Source: Bacteroidales bacterium
GTDB lineage: Bacteria; Bacteroidota; Bacteroidia; Bacteroidales; WCHB1-69
Reading direction: 5' to 3'
DNA: 64,000 bases
Assembly (NCBI GenBank): GCA_017962275.1
Contig: JAGCVQ010000073.1
Span: 4,543 to 68,542, forward strand
Shown here: one piece after another, positions 1,947 to 63,785 of the stretch
How positions within the stretch are numbered: position 1 is the stretch's first letter
How the letters are laid out: every line of letters begins with the position of its first letter
The notes under the pieces: model-generated
Told to the model about the DNA's origin: nothing
What the model saw: only the letters and a program-made list of their open reading frames with translations
Database searches by the model: none
Program-made: the position numbers and the translations under genes

Positions 1947-3548
1947 ATGGAGATGAAAAGAACATTATGGATTGTTTTCGCCTTGATGATGGGCGTGACA
2001 CTGCAGGCGCAGAGTGTTGCGGATTATGAATCGGACGGCATGGAGTGCACTTCCATCACGGTGGGGAAGAAGGCTTCTGCCGATGGATCGGTGATGACTT
2101 CGCATACGGACGACAGCCATCGTTCGCGCACGAACATTTACGTGACGCCCGAGCAGGACTACGAACCCGGTGCCACGCAGACGCTTTACAAGCGCGAGTG
2201 GGCAAAGAAGCAGCAGCCCGGTCAGATGTTGCGCTATGATAACATTCCCGTGGGTGAAATCCCGCAGGTAGAGCACACCTACCAGTTCCTCAACACCGCT
2301 TATCCCTGCGTGAACGAGGCTCAGTTGGCCATCGGCGAATCGACTTTCGGCGGACGTCCCGAACTGAAGTCCGACAGCGGTCTCATTGATTGCCAGCGGC
2401 TCTGCATGCTGCTGCTGCAACGCTGCTGTACGGCCCGCGAAGCTATCGAAACTGCCGGCGTGCTGCTCAAGAAATACGGCTGGATTGACGCAGGTGAGTG
2501 CCTGACCATCGCCGACAAGGATGAGGTGTGGCATCTGGAGATCCTCGGTCCCGGCAGGGGCAAGTTAGGCGCGGTATGGGCGGCACAGCGCGTGCCCGAC
2601 GATCATGTGGCTGTCAATGCCAACGCCTCCACCATCCGCGAAATCAACCTCAAGGACAAGGATTACTTCATGGCCTCCGACAATGTCTATTCGCTGGCCC
2701 GCGATAACGGCTGGTGGGATGGCAAATCGACCTTCCGCTTCGCATACGCATACGCACCGCAAACCCGTACGTCGATGGCATGCCGCCGTCGCGAGTGGCG
2801 CGTCTTCGATCTCGTCGCCCCCTCCCTCCACCTCGACCCCAACGCCGAAAACTATCCTTTCTCTGTGAAACCCGACACGCTCGTCACCCTCGAAAAGATG
2901 ATGAGCATTTTCAGAGATTTCTATGAAGGCACCCCCTACGACATGCGTAAAACGCTGACCGTCACCGATAAAGACGGCAAGACCGTCATCTCCCCGATGG
3001 CCAATCCGTTCATGAAGCTCGACGAGCTGAAGTTGCACCGCATCAACGGAGGCTGGAATGAGCGCGGTGAACGCAGTATCGCTGTCCATTTTACCGTCTA
3101 TGCCACCATCATTCAATGCCGCAACTGGCTGCCCGATGAGGTCGGTGCCCTTTGCTGGTTTGCCCTCGACAATGTGGCTTCCTCCATCTATGTGCCTATC
3201 TATGCCAACGTTACGGATCTCCCGTCCACCTATAAAACGGATGGGCGCCTCACGGGATTCAGCAGGGAGTCCGCTTGGTGGGGCTTCAACCGTGTGGGCA
3301 CGATCGCCGCACAGCGTTGGGGCGACATGCACGTGACGGTGGATAAGACATGGCAGCCCTTGCAGAAAGAGTTCATCAAGGAACACTATGTCATCGAACA
3401 AGAGGCGATGGAGCTGATCAAGCAAGATCGTTATGAGGAGGCTGTACAGGTGCTCACCAACTTCACCGACATTTGCGGCAACGAGGCTGTGGAACGCGCC
3501 TGGAAGCTCGGCGACGAACTCTGGACAACCTACGACGGCCAATGGTAA
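1947..3548 (+). CDS. C69-family dipeptidase (secreted)
   Basis: Signal peptide MEMKRTLWIVFALMMGVTLQAQ, then the Cys-nucleophile context GMECTSITVGKKASADGSVMTSHTDD typical of C69 dipeptidases. The track start at 1929 is TTG; I moved it to the first ATG, 23 nt after a -7 box. Confidence 0.85.
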   Translation: MEMKRTLWIVFALMMGVTLQAQSVADYESDGMECTSITVGKKASADGSVMTSHTDDSHRSRTNIYVTPEQDYEPGATQTLYKREWAKKQQPGQMLRYDNIPVGEIPQVEHTYQFLNTAYPCVNEAQLAIGESTFGGRPELKSDSGLIDCQRLCMLLLQRCCTAREAIETAGVLLKKYGWIDAGECLTIADKDEVWHLEILGPGRGKLGAVWAAQRVPDDHVAVNANASTIREINLKDKDYFMASDNVYSLARDNGWWDGKSTFRFAYAYAPQTRTSMACRRREWRVFDLVAPSLHLDPNAENYPFSVKPDTLVTLEKMMSIFRDFYEGTPYDMRKTLTVTDKDGKTVISPMANPFMKLDELKLHRINGGWNERGERSIAVHFTVYATIIQCRNWLPDEVGALCWFALDNVASSIYVPIYANVTDLPSTYKTDGRLTGFSRESAWWGFNRVGTIAAQRWGDMHVTVDKTWQPLQKEFIKEHYVIEQEAMELIKQDRYEEAVQVLTNFTDICGNEAVERAWKLGDELWTTYDGQW

Positions 3549-3590
3549 CCCCATAACCCTATAACCGTGTAACCCTTTAACCTTCAACCC
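3545..3590. repeat. Degenerate 7-8-nt tandem array, GGTTA/TAACC family
   Basis: GTAACCCC ATAACCCT ATAACCGT GTAACCCT TTAACCT TCAACCC. It fills the stop-to-start spacer between the C69 and thioesterase genes and is the reverse complement of the family at 30766-30925. Confidence 0.85.
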
Positions 3591-9113: not shown

Positions 9114-9141
9114 GTAGAGACGCAAAATTTTGCGTCTCTAC
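9114..9141. repeat. Perfect 28-nt palindrome GTAGAGACGCAAAATTTTGCGTCTCTAC (copy 1)
   Basis: Read directly from the sequence. It lies between convergent genes and could act as a bidirectional hairpin or terminator, although no U-tract follows it. Confidence 0.9.
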
Positions 9142-9142
9142 T

Positions 9143-9170
9143 ATTGCCTGTTGCAAATTGCCTTTTGCCT
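9143..9170. repeat. Heptamer array, AGGCAAT family (reverse orientation)
   Basis: ATTGCCT GTTGCAA ATTGCCT TTTGCCT, with an exact period of 7. Confidence 0.8.
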
Positions 9171-10572: not shown

Positions 10573-11800
10573 TTTATCCTCACTGTTATCATTCTATCCT
10601 CAACAAATAGCGGCGAATGCTGCATTTCACAAGCATGTTCTCAAAGAATATGTGGAGCTTTTGGCATTAGAGCATCTGATGCAGTCCCCTTTTGCGCCAA
10701 AGTTGGTGTTTGTCTGGGGAACGAATCTCCGTCTTGTATATGGAATTGATCGTTTTTCGGAGGATTTGGGCTTCGACTGCAAAGGTTTGACCTCCGAGGA
10801 ATTCATCAGCATGACGGATTCTTTGGCGGAATATCTTCGTCTTCAGGGACTAAAAGTGGAACTTCGGGACAAGGAAAATCCAAAACTAACGGCGTATCGT
10901 CGCAACATCTTTTTCCCAGAACTACTCTTTGAAATGAATCTTACAGGTCATCGCGAGGAACGGTTTCTAATGAAGATTGAGGCACAAGTTCAGGGGGTGG
11001 ACTATATCCCTCAAACGGCTTTGGTCAATCGCTGTGGTTTTTTCTTTTCGGTCACGGTGCCTTCAAAGGAGACCTTGTTGTCCATGAAACTTTCGGCATT
11101 GTTGGCAAGAGCCAAAGGACGTGATTTTTACGACACGATCTTTTTGTGGCAACAAATCGCCCCTGATTTTGATTTTTTGAAACAACGGAATGGCATAGAG
11201 AATGCAGCCGATTTAAGGAAGGCGTTGTTGGACAAGTTGGAGAACACCAGTCTGTCGCAGAAACAGAAAGATTTCGAGCATCTGCTGTTCAATCCAGTCC
11301 GAAGTGCACAAATATTGCATTTCAGGGAGTTTGTGGAGGAAAAGATTAGTGATGACGGATTTCTATATGCAAATGAGATTGAGTTTAATGGCACTAAGGC
11401 ATATTTAAGCGAAGGACTCGCAGAAGTCGAAATAGGTAAGAAATATGGCTATATTGACAAAGATAAGAATTTGATTATCAACGCTGTTTTTGACGATGCA
11501 TATCCATTTGTCAACGGCACAGCACCTGTTGAAATAAAAGGCAAATGGGGATTGATTAACAAAGAGGGAGAATTTGTGATTGAGCCTAAATATGATGACA
11601 TAACATCATTTCATGAAGGATTGGCTGTGGTTGATCTCGATGGAAAAAGTGGGTATATTAACGAACAAGGTGAAATAGTGATACCGATTGTTTACGAGCA
11701 GGCGTCCGTTTTTCGGGATGGAGTTGCCCTTGTCTCTTTAGATGGCAAGAGTTTTTATCATATTGATAATCAGGGAAAAAAGATAAGGAAATGCGAGTGA
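10565..11800 (+). CDS. AbiEii/AbiGii-family nucleotidyltransferase toxin fused to C-terminal WG (KWG-type) repeats
   Basis: Nucleotidyltransferase signature WGTNLRLVYGIDRFSEDLGFDC. The C-terminal ~130 aa carry four tandem repeats of the GKKYGYIDKDKNLII / KGKWGLINKEGEFVI / DGKSGYINEQGEIVI / DGKSFYHIDNQGKKI type. Confidence 0.8.
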   Translation: MIDLSSLLSFYPQQIAANAAFHKHVLKEYVELLALEHLMQSPFAPKLVFVWGTNLRLVYGIDRFSEDLGFDCKGLTSEEFISMTDSLAEYLRLQGLKVELRDKENPKLTAYRRNIFFPELLFEMNLTGHREERFLMKIEAQVQGVDYIPQTALVNRCGFFFSVTVPSKETLLSMKLSALLARAKGRDFYDTIFLWQQIAPDFDFLKQRNGIENAADLRKALLDKLENTSLSQKQKDFEHLLFNPVRSAQILHFREFVEEKISDDGFLYANEIEFNGTKAYLSEGLAEVEIGKKYGYIDKDKNLIINAVFDDAYPFVNGTAPVEIKGKWGLINKEGEFVIEPKYDDITSFHEGLAVVDLDGKSGYINEQGEIVIPIVYEQASVFRDGVALVSLDGKSFYHIDNQGKKIRKCE

Positions 11801-12057
11801 TACTATCTCTTATTCTGATTGTCAACGTCCTCGCCTTCCTCCTCTATGGCATCGACAAGTGGAAGGCGAAGCGGGCGCGGTGGCGGATTCCCGAGAGTGT
11901 GCTGTTGGGGCTGGCGGCGGTCGGGGGCAGCATCGGCGCATGGCTGGGGATGCGCGTGTGGCACCACAAGACCCAGCACAAGAAATTCCGCTACGGTGTG
12001 CCGGCGATTTTGGTGGCGCAAATTGTGTTGCTGGTGTGGATTTTTTGGCCGAGGTGA
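11791..12057 (+). CDS. DUF1294-family small membrane protein
   Basis: 88 aa. LLYGIDKWKAKRARWRIPESVLLGLAAVGGSIGAWLGMRVWHHKTQHKKF matches the DUF1294 pattern. Its ATG overlaps the AbiEii stop by 10 nt. Confidence 0.7.
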   Translation: MRVILSLILIVNVLAFLLYGIDKWKAKRARWRIPESVLLGLAAVGGSIGAWLGMRVWHHKTQHKKFRYGVPAILVAQIVLLVWIFWPR

Positions 12058-12450: not shown

Positions 12451-13571
12451 AAACGGATAAATTAACTGTGAAATATCACGACAGGACTGTCGGAACGTTG
12501 TCTCTTACTCCCGATGATCGTCTGTGCGCCTTTGAATATGACAAATCGTGGTTGTCTGACGGATTTAGCATATCGCCATTGGAACTTCCTTTGAAAACAG
12601 GATTGTTTATTGCCAAACATCAGCCTTTTCATGGAAATTTCGGCATCTTTGAAGACAGCCTCCCCGATGGTTATGGTCGCTATCTGCTTCACAAGGCGTT
12701 GTTGCGCGAAGGTATCAACGACGCAGACCTTTCTGCCCTCGACAGATTGAGTATCGTTGGGGATGGTGGTATGGGGGCGTTAACCTATCATCCTGAAAAA
12801 AAGATAATTAAAGAAGTTGATACAGTTGATTTTGATTTGCTCCAAGAGAAAGCATTGCAGGTGCTGAAGGAGCAACAGGATACTGATGCAGGTTTGCTTC
12901 TTTACAAAAGTGGAAACAGTGGAGGGGCTCGTCCCAAAGCCATTTTCAGTGATAAAGAAGGTCATTGGCTTATAAAGTTCCGTCACTATTACGACCCCGT
13001 TGACATCGGGCAGCAGGAACTCCATTACAATGAGGTGGCCAGACAATGTGGTATCAATGTCCCTGATTGTAAGCTGATTAACGGACGCTATTTTACGACA
13101 CGACGTTTCGATATCGCACCAAGCGGCGAGCGTATCCATACGGCTACGGCAGGTGGCTTGCTTTGTCTGTCGTTGACCATGCCGTATCTCGATTACACAA
13201 ACTTGCTTGCGTTGACTGGTTTTCTCTCTCAAAGCGCTAAAGAAGTGGAAGAGTTGTTTCGACGCATGGTGTTCAACTACTTGACTGACAACAAGGATGA
13301 CCACTGCAAGAACTTCAGTTTTATGGTTACAAAGACTGAGAGTGGACATTATTCCTGGCATCTTGCGCCCGCATACGATTTGACGCTTTGCACGGAGGGT
13401 TATAACGGAGAGCACGCCACTTCCGTCAACGGAACGGGAAATCCCACATTGAAAGATATGATAGCGGTGGGCACGAAAAACAAAATGAGCGAACAGCGTT
13501 GCAAAGAGATATATGAAGAGGTGAAATCGAACTGCGGCGATTTGCTTTTATGTAGAATCAAAGAATCGTAA
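12447..13571 (+). CDS. hipA: HipA-family serine/threonine kinase toxin
   Basis: 374 aa. N-terminal coupling domain (LTVKYHDRTVGTLS...FEDSLPDGYGRYLL) and a C-terminal kinase region (NKDDHCKNFSF...APAYDL). Confidence 0.85.
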   Translation: MKTDKLTVKYHDRTVGTLSLTPDDRLCAFEYDKSWLSDGFSISPLELPLKTGLFIAKHQPFHGNFGIFEDSLPDGYGRYLLHKALLREGINDADLSALDRLSIVGDGGMGALTYHPEKKIIKEVDTVDFDLLQEKALQVLKEQQDTDAGLLLYKSGNSGGARPKAIFSDKEGHWLIKFRHYYDPVDIGQQELHYNEVARQCGINVPDCKLINGRYFTTRRFDIAPSGERIHTATAGGLLCLSLTMPYLDYTNLLALTGFLSQSAKEVEELFRRMVFNYLTDNKDDHCKNFSFMVTKTESGHYSWHLAPAYDLTLCTEGYNGEHATSVNGTGNPTLKDMIAVGTKNKMSEQRCKEIYEEVKSNCGDLLLCRIKES

Positions 13572-15441
13572 TCGTTTCATCATCACTCACCCGCATCTCA
13601 CATCGCCCGCAATCGAACACCAACCGGAAACGGTGCTTGCCGGAAATGAGATACAACGGGTCTTTCGGAGAGTTCGCCTCGGGGGGAAGTTTCTTGCACC
13701 AACCCAACTCGTAACGAAGACAATATTTGCAGGTCATCAACGACTTGCCGGCGTAATCTTCGGTTTTGTCCAAACCGTACTCGATTTCCTTGGCCCCGAA
13801 ATCCTCATACACCTTCCGATGCGCCTCGTTGGTGATGTTCCGCAGATAATCGGCACGCTGGAAGAGAGGTTCGGGATGGTATTGTAACGGCGTGTCTTTG
13901 GGGTGGAAATGCGCGAGACGGGTGGCTGTTAACTGTTCCACCAACTTGGTTTTCAGTTCGTTGATATATCCGGCACGCAAAAAAGCCGTGCATTTGGGAA
14001 TGGTGACGGTGCGTGCCTCGAACGAGGTGCCGCCTAACTTCGACAACGCCGTACGCAATGTCTCCGCCATCTTCTCGGGCTGCTGCGCGGCCGTCAACGC
14101 CACATTGTCCTCCACAATCGCGGTGCATCCGTCCTCATCGGTCATGGTAACCCGAACACGATCAGTGAGCTCTTCGAATAGAATATCCACGGCAATCTTC
14201 CGTTCAGCGGTCTTTCCACTCAAAATCTTCTCGAATTGCTTGTCAATATTTCGGTACAACGCCACTTTGGTGAATTTGGACAGCGGCTTCTGCGGAATGA
14301 TGCGATTGCCTTCCACTCCGTTGACCAAAAAGCCCTCTAATTCGCCCTGCTCGTTGATAAAACACAGACCATCGCCGTTGGATATTGGTTGTTGGCTGTT
14401 AGCTTTCGGCTTTTGGCTATTAGCTATTGGCTGTTGGCTGTTGCCTAATCCCTCAAACCAATACTTCCCGCCACGCTGCCTTAGATACCCGACAAATTGT
14501 CCCATCGCCTTCGGTGTATCGAACGAGGTCATCTTTTCGCGCTGACCTTCAATGAAGTAGGAGGTGAAGTTGCGGTTGAAGGTCTTGTGCAGGTCGGGAG
14601 TAAAGAAGAAACGGGTGGTGCCGCTGCCAACCCGTTGATAATCGGGACGTTCTTCCAATATACGGTCGATGAGCTGACGGTAGTAGGCGGTGACGTTCTT
14701 GACGTAACTCTCGTTTTTCAGCCGGCCCTCGACCTTGAAAGAGCAAATACCCGCGTTCATCATCTCTTCAATGTGATCGGCGCGGCACATATCCTTCAAC
14801 GAGAGCAGGTGCTTGTTCCGGATAAGAGTCTTACCGTCAGCATCTTGCAAGTCGAAGCGGGTTCGGCAGATCTGAGCGCAGGCCCCTCGGTTGCCACTCC
14901 GTCCTGTCATCATCCGGCTGATGTAACACTGGCCGCTGTAGCAGACGCACAATGCGCCATGCACGAACGCTTCCAATTCGATATCGGTCTGTTTATGAAT
15001 CTGTTGTGCAGTCTGTAAATCCATTTCACGGGCCAGTACCGCACGGGTGAAACCTAACTTTTCGAGAAATTGGATGCGTTCCAACGAATGGTTGTGGCAT
15101 TGCGTGCTCGCGTGCAAGGCGATGGGCGGGATATCAAGCGTCAACAGTCCCAGATCCTGAACCAACACGGCATCGACACCGATGTTATAGAGTTCCCAAA
15201 GCAGCTTCCGGGCGGACTCTAACTCGTTGTCGTACAGCAAGGTGTTGACGGTGACATGCACTTTCGAGCCGTAGAGGTGGGCATGTTTCACCAGGGCTTC
15301 GATGTCCTGCAGGGAATTGCCGACCGCCTGACGCGCCCCGAACGCAGGCGCACCCGTATAGACAGCATCCGCGCCGTGGTTGATGGCGGTGATTCCGCAG
15401 GCCAAATCCTTGGCAGGCAACAAAAGCTCGATCTTACTCAT
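13558..15441 (-). CDS. Peptidase U32 family protein (collagenase-like/RlhA-TrhP type) carrying an internal low-complexity insertion
   Basis: IELLLPAKDLACGITAINHGADAVYTGAPAFGARQ and the long conserved body are U32-like. The track start at 15447 is TTG; the first ATG is at 15441. The insert is GNSQQPIANSQKPKANSQQPISNG. Confidence 0.88.
   Translation of the reverse strand: MSKIELLLPAKDLACGITAINHGADAVYTGAPAFGARQAVGNSLQDIEALVKHAHLYGSKVHVTVNTLLYDNELESARKLLWELYNIGVDAVLVQDLGLLTLDIPPIALHASTQCHNHSLERIQFLEKLGFTRAVLAREMDLQTAQQIHKQTDIELEAFVHGALCVCYSGQCYISRMMTGRSGNRGACAQICRTRFDLQDADGKTLIRNKHLLSLKDMCRADHIEEMMNAGICSFKVEGRLKNESYVKNVTAYYRQLIDRILEERPDYQRVGSGTTRFFFTPDLHKTFNRNFTSYFIEGQREKMTSFDTPKAMGQFVGYLRQRGGKYWFEGLGNSQQPIANSQKPKANSQQPISNGDGLCFINEQGELEGFLVNGVEGNRIIPQKPLSKFTKVALYRNIDKQFEKILSGKTAERKIAVDILFEELTDRVRVTMTDEDGCTAIVEDNVALTAAQQPEKMAETLRTALSKLGGTSFEARTVTIPKCTAFLRAGYINELKTKLVEQLTATRLAHFHPKDTPLQYHPEPLFQRADYLRNITNEAHRKVYEDFGAKEIEYGLDKTEDYAGKSLMTCKYCLRYELGWCKKLPPEANSPKDPLYLISGKHRFRLVFDCGRCEMRVSDDETITIL
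14384..14446. repeat. Nine in-frame heptamers inside the U32 peptidase CDS
   Basis: ATTGGTT GTTGGCT GTTAGCT TTCGGCT TTTGGCT ATTAGCT ATTGGCT GTTGGCT GTTGCCT = 63 nt. They encode NSQQPIANSQKPKANSQQPIS on the minus strand. Confidence 0.9.
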
Positions 15442-16654
15442 CGGCAAAGCGTTTCGCCTTCAGTGGGAACTGTTCGGCCAGTTCGCCGGAGTAATAAAAG
15501 TCATTGCAAATCACCCCGAAGGTGTAAATCTCATCGTGGACGGTGATGTGCGAGCCGCCGCACTGTGGGTCGGGACCCGGTTTGGAGGCTGCGAACCCGA
15601 GGTTGAAAAGGGTGAACAGAATGTCGGGACGATTGGTGATGTCGTATCCTGAACGCTTCCATTGCAGCATGGTCTGATGCAGGATACAACCCGTGTAAAT
15701 GTATGAGTACAAATGATTTCGGTAATTCGTGAGCCGGTTGAACCGCTCAGATTGGTGGTCAGCGGTCTGGAAATCGAGGATGTGCTCGTAGGTTTTGCCC
15801 ATGTAGAAAATGGAGGCGGTGTCGGTGAGGTTGCGTTCCACCTGCATGGCCGTGAAATCCTTGATGCCGTTGACCCCGAGCGAGAACTGCGACTGCACCG
15901 AAAGTACCTTCATCGGGCCGAGGTAGCGTTTGTACATTTCGCGTTTGCTGTTGAAAAGCCGTACCTGTTCTCCTACGAGACAGCCCACGATGAGGCGGGG
16001 CTCAACCCCGGTGAGACGGGCGGCTTCATAAATCACGGCGGAATCTTTCAAGATGGCAGCCTTCAACGCCGGCCATGCCGAATCGTTCATCCACGGAACC
16101 ACATTTCCTTCAAACGGAGACATCTTATTGGTTTTCAATAGATTGTTGATATCGTCCACCATCTTCTGATAGGCCGTGGCGTGTTCATCGTCCTGCATGT
16201 ACATGTTGGCGGCATAGAGCATCTCGCTGATGGCCGTGGGACGGTCACTGTATTGCGCGGCATTGAAGATCAGGTCGGCATTCTTCGGATAGAAGTGCCG
16301 CAAAACGGACAGCGAGCGGTAATCCGTGAGAATCTGCTCTTGGCTGTCTATCGAATCCGACTGCGATGTATATTTCTGTCTTTCAGATAGGTAGCGATTG
16401 TTTTGGTCGGCGCCGCCCTTGTTGTTGGTGAAGCCGAGTTCGAAAAACGCCCATGCGCCGAGGATGCCCGCACCCACCAGCGCAAACAGATGTAACACAA
16501 TCAGATAGAATTTGCTGTGTCCCTTCAGCCGTTTCCATGATTTCCACAAACTCCGCTTCTTGCGGAGTTTTTTCGAAGTTTGTTGGGACGTATTGCCATT
16601 GGATTGTAGAGACGGTGCATGCACCGTCTCTACAGAGGAATTTGTCTCTTCCAT
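15434..16654 (-). CDS. Hypothetical membrane-anchored protein
   Basis: 406 aa. A basic stretch is followed by one TM helix (FYLIVLHLFALVGAGILGAWAFF) and a large soluble domain. An 8-nt overlap (ATGAGTAA) joins it to the U32 gene. Confidence 0.6.
   Translation of the reverse strand: MEETNSSVETVHAPSLQSNGNTSQQTSKKLRKKRSLWKSWKRLKGHSKFYLIVLHLFALVGAGILGAWAFFELGFTNNKGGADQNNRYLSERQKYTSQSDSIDSQEQILTDYRSLSVLRHFYPKNADLIFNAAQYSDRPTAISEMLYAANMYMQDDEHATAYQKMVDDINNLLKTNKMSPFEGNVVPWMNDSAWPALKAAILKDSAVIYEAARLTGVEPRLIVGCLVGEQVRLFNSKREMYKRYLGPMKVLSVQSQFSLGVNGIKDFTAMQVERNLTDTASIFYMGKTYEHILDFQTADHQSERFNRLTNYRNHLYSYIYTGCILHQTMLQWKRSGYDITNRPDILFTLFNLGFAASKPGPDPQCGGSHITVHDEIYTFGVICNDFYYSGELAEQFPLKAKRFADE
16605..16634. 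repeat. Perfect 30-nt palindrome TGTAGAGACGGTGCATGCACCGTCTCTACA (variant of the GTAGAGACG family)
   Basis: Same outer arms GTAGAGACG/CGTCTCTAC with a different core. It lies within codons 8-17 (VETVHAPSLQ) of ORF 15434..16654. Confidence 0.9.
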
Positions 16655-16718
16655 TTACGTCTTACGTTTTAAATCTTACGTCAAAATCTAACGTCTAACG
16701 TCCTACGTCTCACGTCTA
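16655..16718. repeat. Heptamer array, ACGTCTC family
   Basis: TTACGTC TTACGTT TTAAATC TTACGTC AAAATC TAACGTC TAACGTC CTACGTC TCACGTC. It fills the spacer from the rnfA stop to the next start codon. Confidence 0.85.
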
Positions 16719-17309: not shown

Positions 17310-17340
17310 TTTTTTCTGTTATTTCGTTTGTTGTTTAATA

Positions 17341-17396
17341 GTGATCAGTGAACAGTGATCAGTGAACAGTGATTTGTGATTGGTAAGTAGAAATCG
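17341..17396. repeat. Heptamer array, CAGTGAA/GTGATCA family
   Basis: GTGATCA GTGAACA GTGATCA GTGAACA GTGATTT GTGATTG GTAAGTA GAAATCG, inside the rnfE-rnfA spacer. Confidence 0.85.
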
Positions 17397-17422: not shown

Positions 17423-17457
17423 AACAATTATCCATTATCCATTATCAATTCTCACAA
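17423..17457. repeat. Heptamer array, ATCCATT family
   Basis: AACAATT ATCCATT ATCCATT ATCAATT CTCACAA. It overlaps the rnfE stop codon and last codons. Confidence 0.8.
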
Positions 17458-19626: not shown

Positions 19627-19672
19627 TGATTGTTGATTTTATTGAATTCTACCTGTCAAAATAATCAAACCG

Positions 19673-19680
19673 CAAAAGTA
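19673..19680 (-). promoter_or_regulatory. -7 box TActTTTG for rnfDGEA
   Basis: 47 nt before the rnfD start at 19626. Confidence 0.45.
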
Positions 19681-19710
19681 CTCTTTTTTTGAATACGTTG
19701 TGTTTTTAAA

Positions 19711-19801
19711 AGACGTAAGACGTGAGACGTAGGACTTAAGATGTTTGGCTAAGGAATTCGCCCTCTCCAATCCAACGTCTCACGTCTTAGATCTTACATC
19801 A
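19711..19801. repeat. Inverted pair of ACGTCT-family heptamer arrays
   Basis: Left arm: AGACGTA AGACGTG AGACGTA GGACTTA AGATGTT (19711-19745). Right arm: AACGTCT CACGTCT TAGATCT TACATCA (19774-19801). A 28-nt spacer separates them. The pair lies between the T9SS gene stop and the rnfD promoter. Confidence 0.85.
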
Positions 19802-24598: not shown

Positions 24599-24605
24599 CA
24601 TTTTT

Positions 24606-24640
24606 AATTGATAATGGATAATTGATAATGGATAATTGTT
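24606..24640. repeat. Heptamer array, ATCCATT family (reverse orientation), left arm of an inverted pair
   Basis: AATTGAT AATGGAT AATTGAT AATGGAT AATTGTT. Confidence 0.85.
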
Positions 24641-24738: not shown

Positions 24739-24773
24739 AATAATTATCCATTATCCATTCTCAATTATCCATT
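24739..24773. repeat. Heptamer array, ATCCATT family, right arm of an inverted pair
   Basis: AATAATT ATCCATT ATCCATT CTCAATT ATCCATT. Confidence 0.85.
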
Positions 24774-24780
24774 AAATTCG

Positions 24781-30756: not shown

Positions 30757-30765
30757 TGTTCTAAT

Positions 30766-30925
30766 GGTTATTGGTTATAGGTTATTGGTTATTGAAGCTT
30801 AGAGTTTAGGGTTAAAGGGTTAAAGGGTTATAGGGTTAAGGGTTACACGGTTACATGGTTACACGGTTATATGGTTACACGGTTACATGGTTACATGGTT
30901 AGGGGTTAGAGTTTGGGTTTGGGGG
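30766..30925. repeat. About 160-nt degenerate 7-8-nt tandem array, GGTTA family
   Basis: GGTTATT GGTTATA GGTTATT GGTTATT ... GGGTTAAA GGGTTAAA GGGTTATA GGGTTAA GGGTTACAC GGTTACAT GGTTACAC GGTTATAT GGTTACAC GGTTACAT GGTTACAT GGTTAGGG GTTAGA GTTTGG GTTTGGGGG. It spans the spacer and the last codons of 30906..32444. Confidence 0.9.
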
Positions 30926-34091: not shown

Positions 34092-34252
34092 AGTCGAAGT
34101 TCAAGGTTCAAAGTTCCAGGTTCAAAGTTCCAGGTTCAAGGTTCAAAGTTCAAGGTTCAAAGTTCAAGGTTCAAAGTTCAAGGTTCAAAGTTCAAGGTTC
34201 AAAGTTCATAAGTCCTAAGTCTCACGTCTCACGTCTCACGTCTCACGTCACC
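34092..34252. repeat. About 23 tandem heptamers, GTTCAAG family morphing into CGTCTCA family
   Basis: AGTCGAA GTTCAAG GTTCAAA GTTCCAG GTTCAAA GTTCCAG (GTTCAAG GTTCAAA)x5 GTTCATA AGTCCTA AGTCTCA CGTCTCA CGTCTCA CGTCTCA CGTCACC. The period is exactly 7, running from the stop at 34248 to the start at 34091. Confidence 0.95.
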
Positions 34253-35201: not shown

Positions 35202-35254
35202 CGATTTTATTGGATTAGTTTAATCTTTTTTCTCAGACGCTATGTCAAAAAGTG

Positions 35255-35262
35255 TATCTTTG
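35255..35262 (+). promoter_or_regulatory. -7 box TAtcTTTG
   Basis: 23 nt before the ATG at 35285. Confidence 0.55.
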
Positions 35263-35284
35263 CGCTTTGTTTTTAGAAATTGGA

Positions 35285-36010
35285 ATGATGAAGTCAATCA
35301 AACGAATAACCCGCCTGTTTCTGCTTGTGCTCCTTTCCGCCGCGGCTGTCTCCTGCAACACCGGCGAGGGTCCTGGCGGCACCGGCTCTATCGAAGGCAC
35401 TGTTTACAAGGTGCTTCACCCCGATGACAACTACAATTTGGAGACCGACACGGTACTGGCCGCCAAGGAGGATGTTTTCCTGGTTTACGGCACTCAGGAC
35501 TTTTACGGGGATGACGAGGAGACCGACCACACCGGCTTCTATCGGTTCGACTATCTGCGTCCCGGCACCTACACCGTCTATGCCTATTCGTCTTTGGCGG
35601 GCGGCGAGCGCGTAGCGGTTCCGCAGACGGTCGAGGTGCAGCGCGGCAAGACGACCACCGTGCCCGACATCTACATCCACGACGGCAAGGCCTACGGCAC
35701 CTCCATCGTGAAGGGGCGCGTCTGGGCTTACTACATCGACAAGAACGGCAACGTGATTTCCCAGGGCTGGGCCTACGGGCAGCGCATGTACATCCAGCGG
35801 CAGGGCGAGGACTACTCCTTCGACGACGTGCGGGTGGGTCTCGACGGCGTGTTCGCTTTCCAGAAACTTTCGCCGGGTAACTATACGGTCTTCACCTTCG
35901 GCGAGGATGAGGACGAGGTTCCCTACGTGGTCTCCAAAACGATTTCCATTCCCGAAACCGACCAGATTTTCTGGTTCCCGGACACGTTCAAAGTGAATGT
36001 CAAACCATAA
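35285..36010 (+). CDS. Lipoprotein with carboxypeptidase-regulatory-like (CarboxypepD_reg-type) repeats
   Basis: MMKSIKRITRLFLLVLLSAAAVSCN lipobox. Repeated G.Y.F..L.PG.YTV motifs (GFYRFDYLRPGTYTVYA, GVFAFQKLSPGNYTVFT). The ATG lies 23 nt after a -7 box. Confidence 0.65.
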   Translation: MMKSIKRITRLFLLVLLSAAAVSCNTGEGPGGTGSIEGTVYKVLHPDDNYNLETDTVLAAKEDVFLVYGTQDFYGDDEETDHTGFYRFDYLRPGTYTVYAYSSLAGGERVAVPQTVEVQRGKTTTVPDIYIHDGKAYGTSIVKGRVWAYYIDKNGNVISQGWAYGQRMYIQRQGEDYSFDDVRVGLDGVFAFQKLSPGNYTVFTFGEDEDEVPYVVSKTISIPETDQIFWFPDTFKVNVKP

Positions 36011-36011: not shown

Positions 36012-36046
36012 AGGCATTAGGCAATAGGGAACGAATAGAAACGATA
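36012..36046. repeat. Heptamer array, AGGCAAT family
   Basis: AGGCATT AGGCAAT AGGGAAC GAATAGA AACGATA, immediately after the stop at 36010. Confidence 0.75.
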
Positions 36047-37346: not shown

Positions 37347-38059
37347 TACAATTTGATTCAGAGTTGTTTGATCCCTCCATTGCAAGCGAGTTCGCTGAAG
37401 ACGCTACAGGTCTTTTCGGCATTCCGTGGTTCGACGGTCCGAGCTTGTGGCAGATGTTGATCCGCTTTGCCCTCAACTTGGCGGTCTGCTGGTTCATCGT
37501 GGGCTGCCTTTACTACAAAAAGAGCAAGCGCCGTGACTACTATTTCACCTTCATGCTGTTCAGCATCACGATTTTCTTCCTGATATTCCTGATGGACAAC
37601 GTGAAAGTGCAGATCGGATTCGCGTTGGGACTGTTCGCCATATTCGGGATGATACGGTACCGGACAGAGACCGTGCCGATTCGCGAGATGACCTACCTGT
37701 TCGTGGTGGTGGGCATTTCGGTCATCAACGGTCTTGCCATGACGGTGAGCTACACCGAACTTTTCATCACGAACCTGATCATCGTGCTGGCGGTTTGGCT
37801 GTTCGAATCGATTCACCGCAAAACGCATCTGGAAAGTAAGATCATTGTGTATGAGAAGGTTGCGTTGGTGCATGCCGACCGCCAGAACGAACTTATGGCC
37901 GATTTGAAGTCCCGCACCGGTCTCGACATCCGCCGCGTGGAAGTCGGCCACATCGACTACCTCAAGGACATCGCCTACGTGAAGGTCTATTACGCCTCCG
38001 ACCAGCCGGAGAACACGATCAATCAGCTCACCAAAGTGAAAAAGGACAACCTTTTTTAA
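37343..38059 (+). CDS. DUF4956-family membrane protein
   Basis: ATGA overlap with the VTC gene. TM helices and the GLFAIFGMIRYRTETVPIREMTYLF motif are typical of DUF4956. Confidence 0.8.
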   Translation: MIQFDSELFDPSIASEFAEDATGLFGIPWFDGPSLWQMLIRFALNLAVCWFIVGCLYYKKSKRRDYYFTFMLFSITIFFLIFLMDNVKVQIGFALGLFAIFGMIRYRTETVPIREMTYLFVVVGISVINGLAMTVSYTELFITNLIIVLAVWLFESIHRKTHLESKIIVYEKVALVHADRQNELMADLKSRTGLDIRRVEVGHIDYLKDIAYVKVYYASDQPENTINQLTKVKKDNLF

Positions 38060-38082
38060 TGAAGAATGCAGAATGAAGAATA

Positions 38083-43900: not shown

Positions 43901-44306
43901 CACCAACTACTTCCTCGGAATGCTCTCCGACCGTTACGAGCTCACCGGTGCGGGTCGCGAGCTGATGATCTTGGTGAAAGACAAGTACTTGGGGGACGCC
44001 CCGCGCCCTGTGGAGATGGTCTCCGGCGGCGAGAGCTTCCTCATCTCCATCGCCCTCGCGTTAGGACTTTCAAACCTCGCCATGCAGGGTATCTCTTCCG
44101 ATTTCCTCTTCATCGACGAGGGCATCAGCCAACTTGACGGCGGCCTCTGCGACAGTGTGGTGAACACGCTCCAGCAACTGCATCACATTGTACATTGCAA
44201 CATCGGTATTATCAGTCACTTGGATGTGCTCGCGGAGAAGATTCCGACGAAGATTGTCGTGCAACCCATAAGCCACGGCACGAGCCAATTAAGAATTCAG
44301 AATTAA
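40917..44306 (+). CDS. sbcC: Exonuclease SbcCD, ATPase subunit C
   Basis: Walker A GPSGAGKSTILDAI, a very long coiled coil with the zinc hook CPVCGQ, and C-terminal SGGESFLISIALALGLS...FIDEG. The last five codons and the stop lie in a heptamer array. Confidence 0.9.
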   Translation: MKFRKLEIHNINSIAEAVIDFERLMPEDQHIFMIWGPSGAGKSTILDAICMALFCKTPRLQSIAEKKENQYVDPEFQFSDKSKGIAINDLRQYLKRGTKEGYCSLQFVGNDSVTYTAKTLFSINRNGNLNNIEWSLSSENGQWSKVKEVEQQVITVTGLTYEQFCRTTMLAQGEFTKFMKSDQNAKAEILEKLTDTSIFSEIGRRIYEKYNAQKKAYEQLDSQNENIVRLNDEQIAEYQAQINAIDRENKQLDSELHILNQKATWLRHLAVLQEDVIHSEQLWQAAIAKLNSEDNLRARQLITRWEQTENERNAFLELRKLRQNASALAQTESQYCVQYQKLTAGYNFLLQTIGQTEAVKQQLQEQLNALSFKCETFANAPVISEKLKQFALLGQNVVAQKQKLQKNAETVAAIQTILAQKEEEIGQAKAGFDQKSAVLSDLKEKSKLFDLNQLTLLQANQKDRIRDLNEAKKAVQTLKDQQNEIKNLKKTLMEKQTLADTLTAQMQQEQQGYVQAQAAQDSAQKCYDSAAQSVHDFAKQVRATLKIGDVCPVCGQKVAQLLTNEAAEESLLKLKNELEEAKKVVLTARKRLDDTITILKTTEGELAAVQKDLQSKLQKQKSDLAGLEESCKRLQIIVDETILEQLERQIEDSERALKETEEKIAVSRKLNAQMEQASAELEKMKQQQETLLGLKHAKELEATKLQEETRVSQTQCLDMENQQAALQSELSGFLATTYPKWEENPSKTAQELTAEAEDYARKQEKLAKQQELSDVYQRDQQQVERNIQQVRTLFDWPVSEKAQLVDKLVENWADFLPNCTVLSQNRANLDAEMANKEFFLQTFYSEHPDIQEAILAQLANTTIETVTQLREQQTDAQNQVQNTHGQYEKAQVSLQKHQESKPVFSEGEDLARIETKITEKNQQKEEKSQKIGQIQHVLEEDADNKRRYAETLAKLEALQQQVRQWERLNNVFGDSTGKTFRKIAQSFILQKLLDNTNYFLGMLSDRYELTGAGRELMILVKDKYLGDAPRPVEMVSGGESFLISIALALGLSNLAMQGISSDFLFIDEGISQLDGGLCDSVVNTLQQLHHIVHCNIGIISHLDVLAEKIPTKIVVQPISHGTSQLRIQN

Positions 44307-44328
44307 GAATTAAGAGTTCAGAATTTTT
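44287..44328. repeat. Heptamer array AATTAAG/AATTCAG
   Basis: AATTAAG AATTCAG AATTAAG AATTAAG AGTTCAG AATTTTT. It encodes the last sbcC codons (LRIQN) and its TAA stop. Confidence 0.85.
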
Positions 44329-46200: not shown

Positions 46201-46259
46201 CTCACTGCTCTTCACTGTTCACTGTTCACTGTACACTGTTCAATAATCACTAATCCCTC
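46201..46259. repeat. Heptamer array, TTCACTG family (reverse complement of the array at 17341-17396)
   Basis: CTCACTG CTC TTCACTG TTCACTG TTCACTG TACACTG TTCAATA ATCACTA ATCCCTC. It abuts the hflX stop. Confidence 0.85.
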
Positions 46260-47500: not shown

Positions 47501-47549
47501 AGGCAACAGGCAAAAGGCAATGGAGAACAGACGATAGGGAACAGAGGAA
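47501..47549. repeat. Heptamer array, AGGCAAT family
   Basis: AGGCAAC AGGCAAA AGGCAAT GGAGAAC AGACGAT AGGGAAC AGAGGAA, between the divergent hflX and araC-type promoters. Confidence 0.85.
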
Positions 47550-47612: not shown

Positions 47613-48626
47613 ATGATTCAGAGTAAATTGACAGTAGGGGGAAAAGTGATTTTCTCGGGCGAGTTTCCCGAGGCGGCCACGTTGCGCAAAGTGGAGGAGG
47701 ACGGCCTCGTCACCACCTATTGCGACAACGAGTTCTTCAGCAGCCGGCTGACGGAAAACCGAGTGGGTCGCTATCTGCTTTTGGGGCAGAAAGCCCAAAG
47801 CCATGTCGATTGCGAGTTCGAGGTGCATCGGACGGGACTGCCGGTGCTGATGATGTCGTTGGCGAAGGACAGCGACATCGTGCGCACCCGCCGTGAGGAC
47901 CGCCGCTGGCGTACGGGGGATGTGTGCCTTTCGCTGTTCCCTGAAGAGGATTCCGTTGTTAACCACTGCAAGCGCGGAGCATCGTTAGAGCTGTTCAACA
48001 TTGTGCTGACCGAGCCGGTGGTGCGGCAGCTGGCCGAGCGGCATCCCGATGCGCTGAACAGTTTCTGTCGCGATTTCGAACGCAACGAGGCGATTGCCTA
48101 TACGCCTGAGGGCACGCAGGCGGATCGCAAGCTGTTGAACCTGTTTCGCGCCATAGAGGAATGCAACGAGATGGGTAACTACGCAGCCAAGTATCTGGAC
48201 ACCATGATTTTGGATACGCTGTCGATGATGATCAACCGGGCCAACGAATCGGACGAGACGCTCGCGCCCGTCAATTTGGCGCTGTCCGAAAAGGTACATG
48301 CCGCCCGCGACATCATGATGACCCAGTACCAAGATCCGCCGTCGCTGCACGCGTTAGCATTGATGGTGGGCACCAACGAGTGCACGCTGAAGTCGGCTTT
48401 CAAGCAGGAGTTTGGGGAGACCGTCTTCCAGTGCCTCTTCGATTACCGCATGTCGTTGGCAACCAAGTATTTGTTGGAAACCTCATGGCCCATCGCCGAG
48501 GTCGGGCTGTTGCTCGGCTACGAATACCAGAGCCATTTCTGCACCGCCTTCCGCAGGAAGTACGGCATGTCACCGACGGAGTTCCGGGAGATCAATACCG
48601 TTCCACAAAATCCTTCACTAACCTGA
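47613..48626 (+). CDS. AraC-family transcriptional regulator
   Basis: C-terminal double HTH: LHALALMVGTNECTLKSAFKQEFG...IAEVGLLLGYEYQSHFCTAFRRKYGMSPTEFR. Confidence 0.85.
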   Translation: MIQSKLTVGGKVIFSGEFPEAATLRKVEEDGLVTTYCDNEFFSSRLTENRVGRYLLLGQKAQSHVDCEFEVHRTGLPVLMMSLAKDSDIVRTRREDRRWRTGDVCLSLFPEEDSVVNHCKRGASLELFNIVLTEPVVRQLAERHPDALNSFCRDFERNEAIAYTPEGTQADRKLLNLFRAIEECNEMGNYAAKYLDTMILDTLSMMINRANESDETLAPVNLALSEKVHAARDIMMTQYQDPPSLHALALMVGTNECTLKSAFKQEFGETVFQCLFDYRMSLATKYLLETSWPIAEVGLLLGYEYQSHFCTAFRRKYGMSPTEFREINTVPQNPSLT

Positions 48627-50043: not shown

Positions 50044-51345
50044 ATGAAAGAAAAAGGAAGCAAAAAACATCTCTTCGGAAAGATTCTTCTTTGCCTGCTC
50101 GCGGTTGCCGTTGTCGTAGGCTGTATCTTTTCTTATTTCGGAGGTTTCGGCACAGGTAAATGTGCTGATAAGAAGGAGTTTGCGAAATATGCCGGTGCCG
50201 TTTCGGACATCGTCATCCCGGATGGTGTGCGCGTCATTGCGTTGGGTGAAGCCACGCATGGCAATGCGAAGTTCCAGCAGTTCAAGCTGGATGTGTTTAA
50301 GTTGATGGTCGAGAAATGCGGCGTGCGGGCGTTCGCGCTGGAGGGCGACTACGGTGGCTGCGAGGCGGTCAACCGGTACATCCACGGCGGGAAAGGCACG
50401 GCGGAAGAGGCCGCTGCGGCCATCGGCTTCCCCATCTACCGGACCAAGGAGATGGCGGATCTCATTGAATGGATGCGAAAGTATAACGTTACTGCCGCAG
50501 AGGACGAAGATTTGCGTTTCTACGGCTTCGACATGCAACTCTACGAGCGCAGCTACCAATATTTGCTGGAGGCTGCCAAGACCTTTGCAGTTCCGACGGC
50601 GGAACTGGAGACGCTATGGGACAAGTCGGAAGGGAAGTACTCGACCTCCTATTCTGCCGACCAAAAGGCGAAAGTGGTAGAGGCGGTGAAGCAGAATTTA
50701 TTGCAGTTGAACGACTCAACGACGGCGCAGGCGGTGCATTTTGCAGATATGCTGCTCCAAAATATCGCTTTAGGGAAGATGATGGACAATATGGCGAAGG
50801 GAGTTATGCTTCGCGACTCACTGATGTTCGTGAACACGCACTGGATCATGGAACAGGAGGAAGCCCGTGGCAGCGAACGCATTCTCATTTCAGGACATAA
50901 CGGGCACATCCAGCGTGTCCACGATTACGGAACGGACGGAAAAGCCATGGGGGCTTTGCTGGCCGACGAGCTTGGGGAAGCGTATTTCGCCATCGGCACC
51001 GATTTCTACAAGGCGAAAGTCAGTTTGCCAAAGGGCTCTAGTGCGAGTAAGAGCAAAAAGCGGAGCAACCACACCTTCTATTCCCACGACCCGTTGGCCA
51101 AAGCCGCCAAAAAGTGCGGATATGAGATCTGTTGGCTCGATTTCTCGAAAATTCCGGACAGTTCCGTACTTAAACAACAAATCACGGACTACACTTGGAT
51201 GGGTGACGTGGGTGAAGGCCACACCCCGCTCATGGCACTTATGCCGATGTCGTACCGCGACTGGGTTTCCCCCGCGAAGCTCTACGACGGCGTGATTTTT
51301 GTGGCGAAGGCAGAACCGATAAAGGTTAGAGGGATAAAGGGTTAA
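50044..51345 (+). CDS. Erythromycin-esterase-family protein with an N-terminal membrane anchor
   Basis: VIALGEATHGNAKFQQFKLDVFKLMVEKCGVRAFALEGDYGGCEAVNRYIHG is the Ere-family (PF05139-type) pattern. The ATG lies 23 nt after a -7 box. Confidence 0.85.
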   Translation: MKEKGSKKHLFGKILLCLLAVAVVVGCIFSYFGGFGTGKCADKKEFAKYAGAVSDIVIPDGVRVIALGEATHGNAKFQQFKLDVFKLMVEKCGVRAFALEGDYGGCEAVNRYIHGGKGTAEEAAAAIGFPIYRTKEMADLIEWMRKYNVTAAEDEDLRFYGFDMQLYERSYQYLLEAAKTFAVPTAELETLWDKSEGKYSTSYSADQKAKVVEAVKQNLLQLNDSTTAQAVHFADMLLQNIALGKMMDNMAKGVMLRDSLMFVNTHWIMEQEEARGSERILISGHNGHIQRVHDYGTDGKAMGALLADELGEAYFAIGTDFYKAKVSLPKGSSASKSKKRSNHTFYSHDPLAKAAKKCGYEICWLDFSKIPDSSVLKQQITDYTWMGDVGEGHTPLMALMPMSYRDWVSPAKLYDGVIFVAKAEPIKVRGIKG

Positions 51346-52987: not shown

Positions 52988-53097
52988 GAGTTAAGAGATA
53001 ATAGTTAATCGTTGATGGGGATAAGTCATAGTCTAAGTTATAAGTCAAAGTCATAGTCAAAGTCATAGTCAAGGTCATAGTCTATACTAACAACCAA
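52983..53097. repeat. Mixed 6-7-nt tandem array, GTCATA/GTCAAA family
   Basis: GTTAAGA GTTAAGA ... GTTAATC GTTGATG ... GTCATA GTCTAA GTTATAA GTCAAA GTCATA GTCAAA GTCATA GTCAAG GTCATA GTCTATA CTAACAA CCAACAA. It fills the stop-to-start spacer. Confidence 0.85.
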
Positions 53098-63730: not shown

Positions 63731-63785
63731 AGCCAACAGGGAATAGGCAAAAGGCAAAAGGCAATAGTCAAAGTTAAAGTTTAAA
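63731..63785. repeat. Heptamer array, AGGCAAT family
   Basis: AGCCAAC AGGGAAT AGGCAAA AGGCAAA AGGCAAT AGTCAAA GTTAAA GTTTAAA. It fills the spacer between the stop at 63725 and the start at 63789. Confidence 0.85.

Follow-up and report, generated by a model that had tools for sequence, protein, structure and literature searches.

The host gene and the array within it

The DNA analysed here, referred to below as the window, is a stretch of 64,000 nucleotides from an uncultured Bacteroidales bacterium. The array of interest is located inside an rlhA-like gene on the reverse strand (13558..15447), which encodes a U32 and a DUF3656 domain and was listed as an open reading frame of 629 aa starting from TTG. 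Translation probably starts at the ATG two codons further in (15441); the resulting product of 627 aa is the one deposited as MBP5497038.1. The Peptidase_U32 domain (PF01136; 14536..15222, reverse strand, residues 76-304, E = 4.8e-77) is a TIM barrel and carries the conserved residues Cys167 and Cys174. The DUF3656 domain (PF12392; 13915..14259, reverse strand, residues 397-511, E = 8.9e-17) follows. [quoted passage not shown] The gene product shares 40% identity with E. coli RlhA over the full length (630 columns, E = 2e-156). The four cysteines essential in E. coli, C169, C176, C580 and C611, align with C167, C174, C584 and C613 of the window protein, and these positions are invariant across a 137-sequence alignment. 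The NCBIfam matches of the protein are restricted to TrhP/UbiU models, with scores under their cut-offs. A sequence search of the PDB returned no match, and the matches of a fold search were confined to 5D88, a U32 TIM barrel, and to generic TIM barrels. As judged from the domains, the full-length identity and the four cysteines, the gene is an orthologue of RlhA, the 23S rRNA ho5C2501 synthase, and not simply the U32 peptidase gene of the first-pass annotation.

The array consists of ten heptanucleotide units (14377..14446, reverse strand) and encodes residues 334-357 (..GNSQQPIANSQKPKANSQQPISN). On the coding strand the units read, in order, AGGCAAC AGCCAAC AGCCAAT AGCTAAT AGCCAAA AGCCGAA AGCTAAC AGCCAAC AACCAAT ATCCAAC, with the consensus AGSCAAY. 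Nine of them (63 nt, 14384..14446, reverse strand) had been listed in the first-pass annotation; all nine are exactly present on the forward strand, and the peptide reported for them, NSQQPIA NSQKPKA NSQQPIS, is indeed encoded within the open reading frame. The tenth, degenerate unit is added here. It reads GTTGGAT at 14377-14383 (reverse complement ATCCAAC) and overlaps conserved Ile-Ser-Asn codons. Tandem Repeats Finder (TRF) reports period 7 at 14377-14443 (9.6 copies, 78% matches) and also period 21 (2.9 copies, 76% matches). The self-identity of the array is 0.78 at lag 7, 0.71 at lag 14 and 0.73 at lag 21, and does not exceed 0.35 at any other lag. At lag 7, 49 of 63 positions match, which exceeds the mean of 15.7 across the window (sd 4.6) by about 7 sd. 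The DNA period of the coding array is 7, not 21. Since lag 21 scores about the same as lag 14, the 21-nt super-period previously proposed for this allele is the arithmetic of 7 x 3 and not an additional DNA signal. The tract is imperfect, and neighbouring units are never identical in the window allele. With at least three head-to-tail 7-nt copies beyond chance, a recurrent unit family and a strain-variable copy number, the array resembles heptanucleotide simple sequence repeats (SSR) and short tandemly repeated repetitive (STRR) sequences, except that SSR/STRR-like arrays are intergenic and this one lies inside a coding sequence.

No structure is predicted for the array RNA (z = -0.11), and Rfam gave nothing in the window. 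Neither inverted repeats nor target duplications were found around the array in the region 14250-14580. Apart from the array itself, the only direct repeat in this region is a pair of imperfectly matching 13-nt copies (85%) that lie 133 nt apart and do not flank the array. The absence of terminal inverted repeats and of a target-site duplication in this region rules against a mobile insertion of the MITE/REP type.

The protein was modelled with AlphaFold2. The 54 close orthologues alone led to a pLDDT of 52, and a profile search for diverse homologues returned nearly the same close set; the addition of 50%-identity representatives resulted in a confident model (mean pLDDT 94.5, pTM 0.93). Its sole internal low-confidence stretch is the coil 333-359, located between the strands 328-332 and 360-364, with a mean pLDDT of 49 in the block 341-350. 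The modelling proposed earlier thus does place the array in a surface loop. According to the model, this disordered loop lies between two beta-strands of a small domain after the TIM barrel, instead of being the ordinary interdomain linker previously assumed, and is predicted to be away from the catalytic cysteines.

Comparison with the family confirms an insertion at this position. The spacing from FDTPK to NGDG is 26 aa in 103 of 150 diverse representatives and 25-31 aa in 146 of them; distant relatives (47% identity) carry a 26-aa stretch at the array site. The window protein has 43 aa here, a net gain of 17 aa over the usual family length and not of the 21 aa previously stated. At 75-81% identity, many orthologues lack an insert or carry an unrelated one. 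One alternative linker, 'PQYLKTSSLSSPxRGKKLGSAI', is restricted to the linker site among the related loci examined and has zero copies in the window. It was considered as a captured intergenic hairpin and rejected, as its GCCCC/GGGGC stem is no stabler than that of shuffled sequences (z = -0.34).

Array alleles in related genomes

At the DNA level, AGGCAAY/AGCCAAY arrays occupy the same site in dozens of related species. AGGSAAY units are located at the 5′ side and AGCCAAY units at the 3′ side, in an order that is fixed across species, and the arrays always adjoin one same conserved Asn codon. The copy number varies from about 2 to 21 units. The anchor-to-anchor lengths are 102, 123, 144 and 165 nt, and all 31 loci with both anchors are in frame; these loci were found via peptide patterns unrelated to the array, in scans blind to the reading frame. 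The intact alleles of a given species differ in length by exact steps of 7 aa, corresponding to 21 nt or three units. The linker lengths inside six clusters at 90% identity are 23/30, 23/30/37, 23/30, 30/37/44/51, 30/37 and 30/37 aa, whereas the linker length is constant in array-less clusters. About 61 distinct intact array-type linkers were collected, 49 of which fall on a ladder of 16+7k aa, and a DNA ladder of 9, 12, 15 and 18 units is seen in a sister species. Such ladders in multiples of 3 nt, here 21 nt or 7 aa, and the location in exposed disordered segments are shared with the in-frame coding minisatellites used as strain-typing VNTRs. In contrast to these, the unit here is 7 nt, and the 21-nt step probably comes from frame selection and not from the repeat unit.

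The window allele carries ten units in the coding array and four conspecific contigs (L038-L041, 97-98% identity) carry seven. The additional units AGCCAAA AGCCGAA AGCTAAC (21 nt, 14398..14418, reverse strand) were placed by unit register. Between the same contigs the intergenic arrays differ by one 7-nt unit, and nearly all indels are located in or beside arrays. Within the locus, indels are concentrated at the coding array in two species, and five of five contigs from the window's own species are in frame. The frame had been thought to survive because the unit number is a multiple of three; it is the differences between alleles, however, that come in steps of three.

The persistence of the insert in frame in many species, its polar, Gln/Pro/Ser-rich composition, which is like that of natural linkers, and the binding of pre-50S particles by RlhA (PMC5727448) would be consistent with selection acting on the protein, where the heptapeptide repeat might, for instance, form an RlhA arm that is flexible or contacts RNA; the DNA periodicity would then be secondary. 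This explanation predicts a 21-nt period only, whereas lags 7 and 14 are equally strong. Furthermore, the heptamer is translated in each of the three codon phases, identical units occur in untranslated intergenic arrays, and both the wide range of copy numbers and the many orthologues at 75-81% identity with no insert or another one argue against it. We regard it as highly improbable.

A change of one or two units results in a frameshift with a stop codon inside the array itself, which bears out the earlier claim that gain or loss of a single unit would shift the frame. Two out-of-frame arrays were found, both in the sister species: L035 with 91 nt (13 units) and L034 with 94 nt. The 94-nt and 91-nt states and an in-frame 105-nt state (15 units) are present on three contigs from different samples, which do not differ in their flanks over the 450-800 nt compared. 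Barring misassembly of the contigs, such a pattern is more suggestive of a hypermutable site than of occasional mutation. The lesion in L034 is an 11-nt deletion and not a unit slip. The two out-of-frame alleles are rare and could be assembly errors. Other lesions cluster beside the array, with a deletion of approximately 80 nt in L010 and the loss of 1 nt in a G-run in L049 and L050; L037 has a scaffold gap inside the array. Protein fragments in the clusters were inspected singly, and most of them are cut by contig ends or internal starts and not by the array.

These observations bear on the possibility of a true contingency locus, in which single-unit slippage would, at an appreciable rate, turn intact RlhA into a truncated or split form and back; C2501 hydroxylation would then vary between subpopulations, and the switching itself would be selected. 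SSR contingency loci with tetranucleotide or other non-triplet repeats are known from the coding regions of H. influenzae and Neisseria (PMC2651432, PMC3315296). The array is like them in its non-triplet units within a coding sequence, in the early stop that follows a one-unit change and, if the two out-of-frame arrays are not assembly errors, in the natural occurrence of such alleles. The flanks shared by the two out-of-frame alleles and the in-frame 15-unit allele, the gap in L037, the role of the array as the main indel site of the locus in two species, and the fact that rlhA can be deleted in E. coli (PMC5727448) also speak for such a locus. However, the tracts of these known loci consist of perfect repeats, lie close to the 5′ end of genes for surface, LPS or restriction-modification functions, and have frequent OFF alleles (PMC2651432, PMC3315296). 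Here the units are imperfect, the tract lies mid-gene at codons 334-357 of 629, the host gene encodes a putative rRNA-modifying enzyme, and the alleles are almost always in frame: 31 of 31 loci with both anchors, five of five contigs of the window species, and about 61 distinct intact linkers against two out-of-frame arrays, one of which did not arise by a unit slip and both of which may be metagenome misassemblies. The phase-variation switch suggested by the first-pass annotation is therefore hardly borne out, and we consider selected switching of this kind quite unlikely. It is improbable that the array functions as a contingency tract within a housekeeping gene, makes RlhA alternate between the intact enzyme and a truncated or two-piece one, and leaves clonal rumen Bacteroidales populations mixed for a modification of the peptidyl-transferase centre.

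Heptamer arrays in the intergenic regions

The AGSCAAY pattern has 24 matches in the window versus 4.5 expected, and none of 100 shuffles reached at least 24. Four intergenic arrays of the same heptamer family, at the positions given previously, are confirmed. The array AGGCAAA AGGCAAT TTGCAAC AGGCAAT (9143..9170, reverse strand) is located just downstream of an AAA_28 gene, and its orthologue is present in L037 (3972-4008). AGGCATT AGGCAAT AGGGAAC (36012..36032, forward strand) directly follows the stop of the open reading frame 35252..36010, and AGGCAAC AGGCAAA AGGCAAT (47501..47521, forward strand) lies upstream of the open reading frame 47613..48626. The fourth, AGCCAAC AGGGAAT AGGCAAA AGGCAAA AGGCAAT AGTCAAA (63731..63772, forward strand), is found 18 nt upstream of the ATG at 63790. 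In all copies the AGGCAAY strand has the sense orientation of the neighbouring gene. Among the arrays of the window with period 7, 14 or 21, 13 of 16 are outside long open reading frames, which cover 86% of the sequence (P = 2e-9), and one further array (44287-44325) is effectively intergenic. These periods account for 74 of the 117 tandem arrays in the window and 41 related loci, and the window genome contains many unit families, not one. Across this group of uncultured rumen Bacteroidales, heptamer arrays fill the spacers between genes; no description of them was found in the literature searched.

The closest parallels are the heptanucleotide long SSRs (Mrazek et al. 2007, as summarised in PMC4679880) and the cyanobacterial STRR sequences, which, as far as that summary goes, are overwhelmingly intergenic with a strain-variable copy number; polymerase slippage with a 7-nt step has been proposed there as the cause. 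Within the scope of the same summary, the arrays described here share the tandem 7-nt units, the few unit families at many loci and the variable copy number, and differ in the host, an uncultured rumen Bacteroidales, in the unit sequences and in one array being translated in frame within a conserved enzyme. TAACTGA direct repeats are known from Beggiatoaceae, Cyanobacteria and some Bacteroidetes (MacGregor 2015, PMC4679880), and that study also weighs which repeat orientations can be translated. Like them, the present heptamers are located just upstream of start codons or just after stops, with an orientation bias relative to the gene. Unlike TAACTGA, which contains stop codons and cannot cross a coding sequence, AGCCAAC has no stop codon in any of the three sense frames; in addition, many unit families rather than one are present in this genome.

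The shared unit family raises the possibility of a one-off ectopic insertion, in which illegitimate recombination or gene conversion placed a copy of an intergenic AGGCAAY array, or of part of one, in the loop, where it then drifted. One array of the family lies just downstream of the AAA_28 gene (9143-9170 in the window, 3972-4008 in L037), and in relatives without the HipA/AbiE genes the AAA_28 gene directly follows rlhA. The four intergenic arrays of the family and their uniform sense orientation also favour this explanation. Against it, the array ends show neither inverted repeats nor target duplications, arrays always abut the same Asn codon, and the two unit subfamilies keep their 5′-to-3′ order across species. 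Moreover, the 3′ end of the array overlaps conserved codons. The sequence CAAT TTCCAAC, which corresponds to the last one and a half units, is also found in array-less orthologues, where it encodes the conserved Ala-Ile-Ser-Asn, and constitutes a plausible local seed. A one-off insertion is thus unlikely. The earlier view of the array as an insertion of the intergenic type holds for the heptamer family but not for a recent or private event, as dozens of species carry arrays at the same site.

Origin and maintenance of the array

We propose, with a probability of roughly 70%, that the array is a heptanucleotide microsatellite: slippage maintains it, the loop tolerates it, and selection retains only multiples of three units. 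The copy number would shift by replication slippage or unequal recombination between units, and selection for intact RlhA would purge alleles that deviate by one or two units. The insert is probably tolerated because AGCCAAC is open in every sense frame, because its product would always be the same polar, flexible cyclic heptapeptide S-Q-Q-P-T-A-N, and because the loop is predicted to lie away from the catalytic cysteines. The rare out-of-frame alleles may represent occasional loss-of-function or split-gene variants of a dispensable enzyme, or maybe assembly errors. The array most likely grew in place by local expansion, and an origin as a copy of an intergenic array is less probable. In a rough UPGMA tree the linker types (array, 'SSLSSP' type and none) are interspersed, and monophyly of the array-bearing alleles is not resolved; therefore recurrent gain and loss, or recombination, must be invoked.

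The case is one of fairly ordinary repeat slippage filtered by the reading frame. It makes mutation and selection separable within one genome: the intergenic arrays vary in single units, the coding array only in threes. It also illustrates how a non-triplet microsatellite can persist in a conserved enzyme, through a unit open in all frames and a disordered loop, and the locus would be a convenient strain-typing marker. In addition, the case draws attention to this uncultured rumen clade, in which heptamer arrays dominate the spacers in a way similar to cyanobacteria. The locus is also a candidate for heritable on/off variation of rRNA modification, provided that the frameshifted alleles are real. 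Should the contingency reading be true, this would be phase variation of the ribosome itself, driven by a lineage-wide heptamer-generating process.

The heptamer array and its host gene

All nine heptamers listed in the first-pass annotation are found exactly at 14384-14446 on the + strand. On the coding strand (-), the array comprises ten in-register units at 14377-14446: AGGCAAC AGCCAAC AGCCAAT AGCTAAT AGCCAAA AGCCGAA AGCTAAC AGCCAAC AACCAAT ATCCAAC. Tandem Repeats Finder places it at 14377-14443 with period 7 (9.6 copies, 78% matches) and also scores it as period 21 (2.9 copies, 76% matches). Compared with itself, the array scores an identity of 0.78 at lag 7, 0.71 at lag 14 and 0.73 at lag 21; no other lag up to 28 exceeds 0.35. 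With 49/63 positions matching at lag 7, where the window averages 15.7 (sd 4.6), the basic period of the array is 7 nt. As annotated, the array lies inside ORF 13558..15447 (-) and is translated as NSQQPIA NSQKPKA NSQQPIS. The proposed 7-aa (21-nt) super-period is mere arithmetic of a 7-nt unit in a 3-nt code; the unit-to-unit identity at lag 3 (5.14/7) is not above that at lag 1 (5.44/7).

The product of the host gene contains Pfam domains Peptidase_U32 (residues 76-304) and DUF3656 (residues 397-511), an architecture common to E. coli RlhA (b1435), with which it shares 40% identity over its whole length (E = 2e-156). Cys167, Cys174, Cys584 and Cys613 align with Cys169, Cys176, Cys580 and Cys611, which are essential in RlhA; homologues of RlhA occur in 89% of Bacteroidia (Kimura et al., PMC5727448). 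Judging from the full-length similarity, the shared domains and the four aligned cysteines, the host enzyme is most likely a 23S rRNA 5-hydroxycytidine-2501 synthase and no protease. The deposited protein MBP5497038.1 is the same protein begun at an ATG two codons downstream. The genomes closest to the window are uncultured Bacteroidales MAGs from rumen and hindgut.

Position of the array in the protein and its length in relatives

An AlphaFold2 model of the protein, built from an alignment of 137 sequences, has a mean pLDDT of 94.5 and a pTM of 0.93. Its sole internal low-confidence part is the unstructured segment 333-359 (mean pLDDT 49 in the block 341-350), flanked by strands 328-332 and 360-364. 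The array encodes residues 334-357, which places the insert in a loop of the predicted structure. Among 150 family representatives with pairwise identity of 50% or less, the stretch from FDTPK to NGDG is 26 aa long in 103 and 25-31 aa in 146, against 43 aa in the window protein; Paludibacteraceae orthologues (47% identity) are without the insert. The array segment thus inserts about 17 aa, not 21 aa, in a loop whose length is otherwise fixed. No homologous non-periodic segment was found in distant relatives, where the array segment has no counterpart. Apart from such corrections, the analysis supports the earlier reading of the segment as an intergenic-type repeat inserted in frame. The only other representative with a longer stretch here (47 aa) is the 647-aa P0444, a 50%-identity representative; its stretch holds GHREQGA RNRELGR, apparently a translated heptamer array, sited at the preceding turn.

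In 120 orthologues with 75-97% identity, the same site carries between zero insert and about 45 extra residues. Many of them show heptapeptide repeats (e.g. NRQQAIG, NREQAIG, NSQQPIA) that correspond exactly to (AGGCAAY)n and (AGCCAAY)n translated in the three frames. In the DNA of loci with both conserved flanking anchors, AGGSAAY units come first (5′) and AGCCAAY units follow (3′). Here the array invariably adjoins the conserved Asn codon of NGDGLCF, and the anchor-to-anchor distances are 102, 123, 144 and 165 nt. Linker lengths vary within the array-bearing 90%-identity clusters (23/30, 23/30/37, 23/30, 30/37/44/51, 30/37 and 30/37 aa) and are constant in array-less species. A ladder of 16+7k aa fits 49 of about 61 distinct array-type linkers. 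One species has 9, 12, 15 and 18 units on 96-100% identical backgrounds, the array being nearly the sole indel across 4.9 kb. The window allele has 10 units, against 7 in four conspecific contigs from four samples (97-98% identity).

Many other orthologues contain a fixed non-periodic 'PQYLKTSSLSSPxRGKKLGSAI' in place of the array, and some have both. This linker is a 16-aa fixed-length insertion in the same loop (orthologous loci L001, L003-L006, L008 and L016-L018). Even a single 90%-identity cluster (P0058) can contain two linker types (623 vs 610 aa). The loop is thus a general hotspot, possibly with allele recombination.

Maintenance of the reading frame

Indels between the window and conspecific contigs lie nearly all in or beside heptamer arrays. 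Where intergenic differences are clean, they amount to one 7-nt unit each (GATAATG, 3 vs 4 copies; TACCAAT, 1 vs 2); for the coding array, the same comparisons give a difference of 21 nt. When one or two units are removed from or added to the window allele in silico, a stop falls within the array, at codons 338-346, which confirms the expected frameshift; the off-frame TAA and TAG arise from AGCTAAY and AAT-AG junctions. With three units removed in silico, the protein stays intact. In the simplest account, slippage in 7-nt steps would alter the copy number, and selection would retain only multiples of three units in the coding array. The pure AGCCAAC unit has no stop in any of the three sense frames and gives the same cyclic peptide in each, S-Q-Q-P-T-A-N, which is polar and suited to a loop.

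The first-pass annotation considered the array a potential phase-variation switch. Two out-of-frame arrays were found, both in a sister species. That of L035 counts 13 units (91 nt) and is 14 nt short of the in-frame 15-unit allele. L034 has a 94-nt array with an 11-nt deletion, located mid-contig (20.8 kb), and its gene is called in two, a 350-aa U32 product and a 249-aa DUF3656 product. Between L034 and L035, the flanks show 0 differences, upstream over 450 nt and downstream over 800 nt. Along these downstream 800 nt, the in-frame L036 also matches both without a difference; as its contig begins inside the array, the upstream side is not comparable. The three loci come from three different samples. 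Three more observations cluster at this place: a scaffold gap within the more perfect (AGGCAAC)n array of L037, a deletion of about 80 nt directly upstream of the array in L010, and a split gene in another species (L049, 1440-1470; L050, 1269-1299), where a G-run lying 25 nt upstream of it has lost one G. This split gene has the same sequence in two samples, and the downstream ORF restarts at a TTG overlapping the upstream stop. All these findings are compatible with local instability of the region, and also with assembly problems at a polymorphic repeat. However, the units are imperfect, the tract lies mid-gene, and the frame is kept in all conspecific contigs and in 31/31 loci with both anchors, which were recovered by peptide patterns unrelated to the array. 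A dedicated switch with a true contingency function is therefore not established and appears quite improbable.

Heptamer arrays in the genome and the origin of the coding array

Intergenic spacers of the window genome are largely heptamer arrays. Of the 16 arrays with period 7, 14 or 21 in the window, 13 lie outside long ORFs, which span 86% of the sequence (P = 2e-9). Besides the rlhA array, those counted inside ORFs are 44287-44325, which provides just the closing codons of the upstream gene, stop included, and 50383-50411, a weak two-copy repeat. Intergenic heptamer arrays are located at 16655-16717, 17340-17373, 17427-17450, 19710-19741, 24605-24638, 24743-24774, 30765-30794, 34099-34208, 34219-34249, 38058-38081, 44287-44325, 46211-46242, 52982-53008 and 63734-63772; arrays fill the entire gaps 16655-16717, 30765-30901 and 34099-34249. 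Their unit families include ACGTCTY, GATAATG, CAGTGAW and GTTCAAG/AATTAAG. Period 7, 14 or 21 was found in 74/117 non-redundant tandem arrays of the window and 41 related loci, and in none at a Paludibacteraceae locus. As annotated, the AGSCAAY family of the coding array forms short arrays elsewhere (9143-9170 (-), 36012-36032, 47501-47521 and 63731-63772); the pattern has 24 matches in the window vs 4.5 expected, a number reached in 0/100 shuffles.

The main exception to the 7-nt rule are octamer arrays, AGGGTTAC (x11.9) and TAACCCTA (x4.6), at 30808-30901 and 3546-3582; the reverse complement of TAACCCTA is TAGGGTTA, and the two units are almost reverse complements of one another. Short ACGTCTY/AAGACGT arrays form an inverted pair at ~19640-19790, TAAGACGTGAGACGT ... 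ACGTCTCACGTCTTACGTCTT, with about 50 nt of unique sequence between them. A perfect palindromic hairpin family, GTAGAGACG-N10-CGTCTCTAC, has 3 copies vs 0 expected (9114-9141, 16606-16633 and 54351-54378). At 9114-9141 the hairpin adjoins the AGGCAAT array at 9143; a further copy falls within the opening codons of the mechanically listed ORF 15434..16654, whose true start is probably further downstream, since the gene call in a relative is 371 aa vs 406 aa.

No inverted repeats or target duplications were found around the coding array, and its RNA is unstructured. Array-less orthologues, too, contain the final one and a half units of the array (CAAT TTCCAAC / CAAT ATCCAAC), e.g. as GCGCAATTTCCAACGGCGAT in L001 and L018, where they code for Ala-Ile-Ser-Asn. 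They are a plausible seed from which the array may have grown in place. A copy event from an intergenic array is also possible, as an AGSCAAY-family intergenic array lies just past the AAA_28 gene, which directly follows rlhA in relatives without the HipA/AbiE genes. In one sister-species strain (L047:4199-4863), the AAA_28 gene downstream of rlhA is followed by a gene for a Cas12a (Cpf1)-like protein, about 1600 aa long, that bears a WYL/WCX region at its N-terminus. Within the HipA / HTH / AbiEii toxin-antitoxin neighbourhood beside rlhA, 10876-12037 (~1.16 kb) is present in the window and missing from the conspecific L038-L041, which are 97-98% identical elsewhere.

Among long SSRs, heptanucleotide repeats have been described as the most frequent class, and slippage of the polymerase was proposed as their cause (Mrazek et al. 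2007, as cited in MacGregor, PMC4679880), and TAACTGA arrays are found beside start codons (MacGregor, PMC4679880). Our literature search found no description of such heptamer arrays in Bacteroidales. The rlhA array adds a case to two known phenomena, heptanucleotide SSRs and coding VNTRs, in an unusual place and an undescribed lineage. It provides an unusually clear illustration of frame selection acting on a non-triplet repeat.
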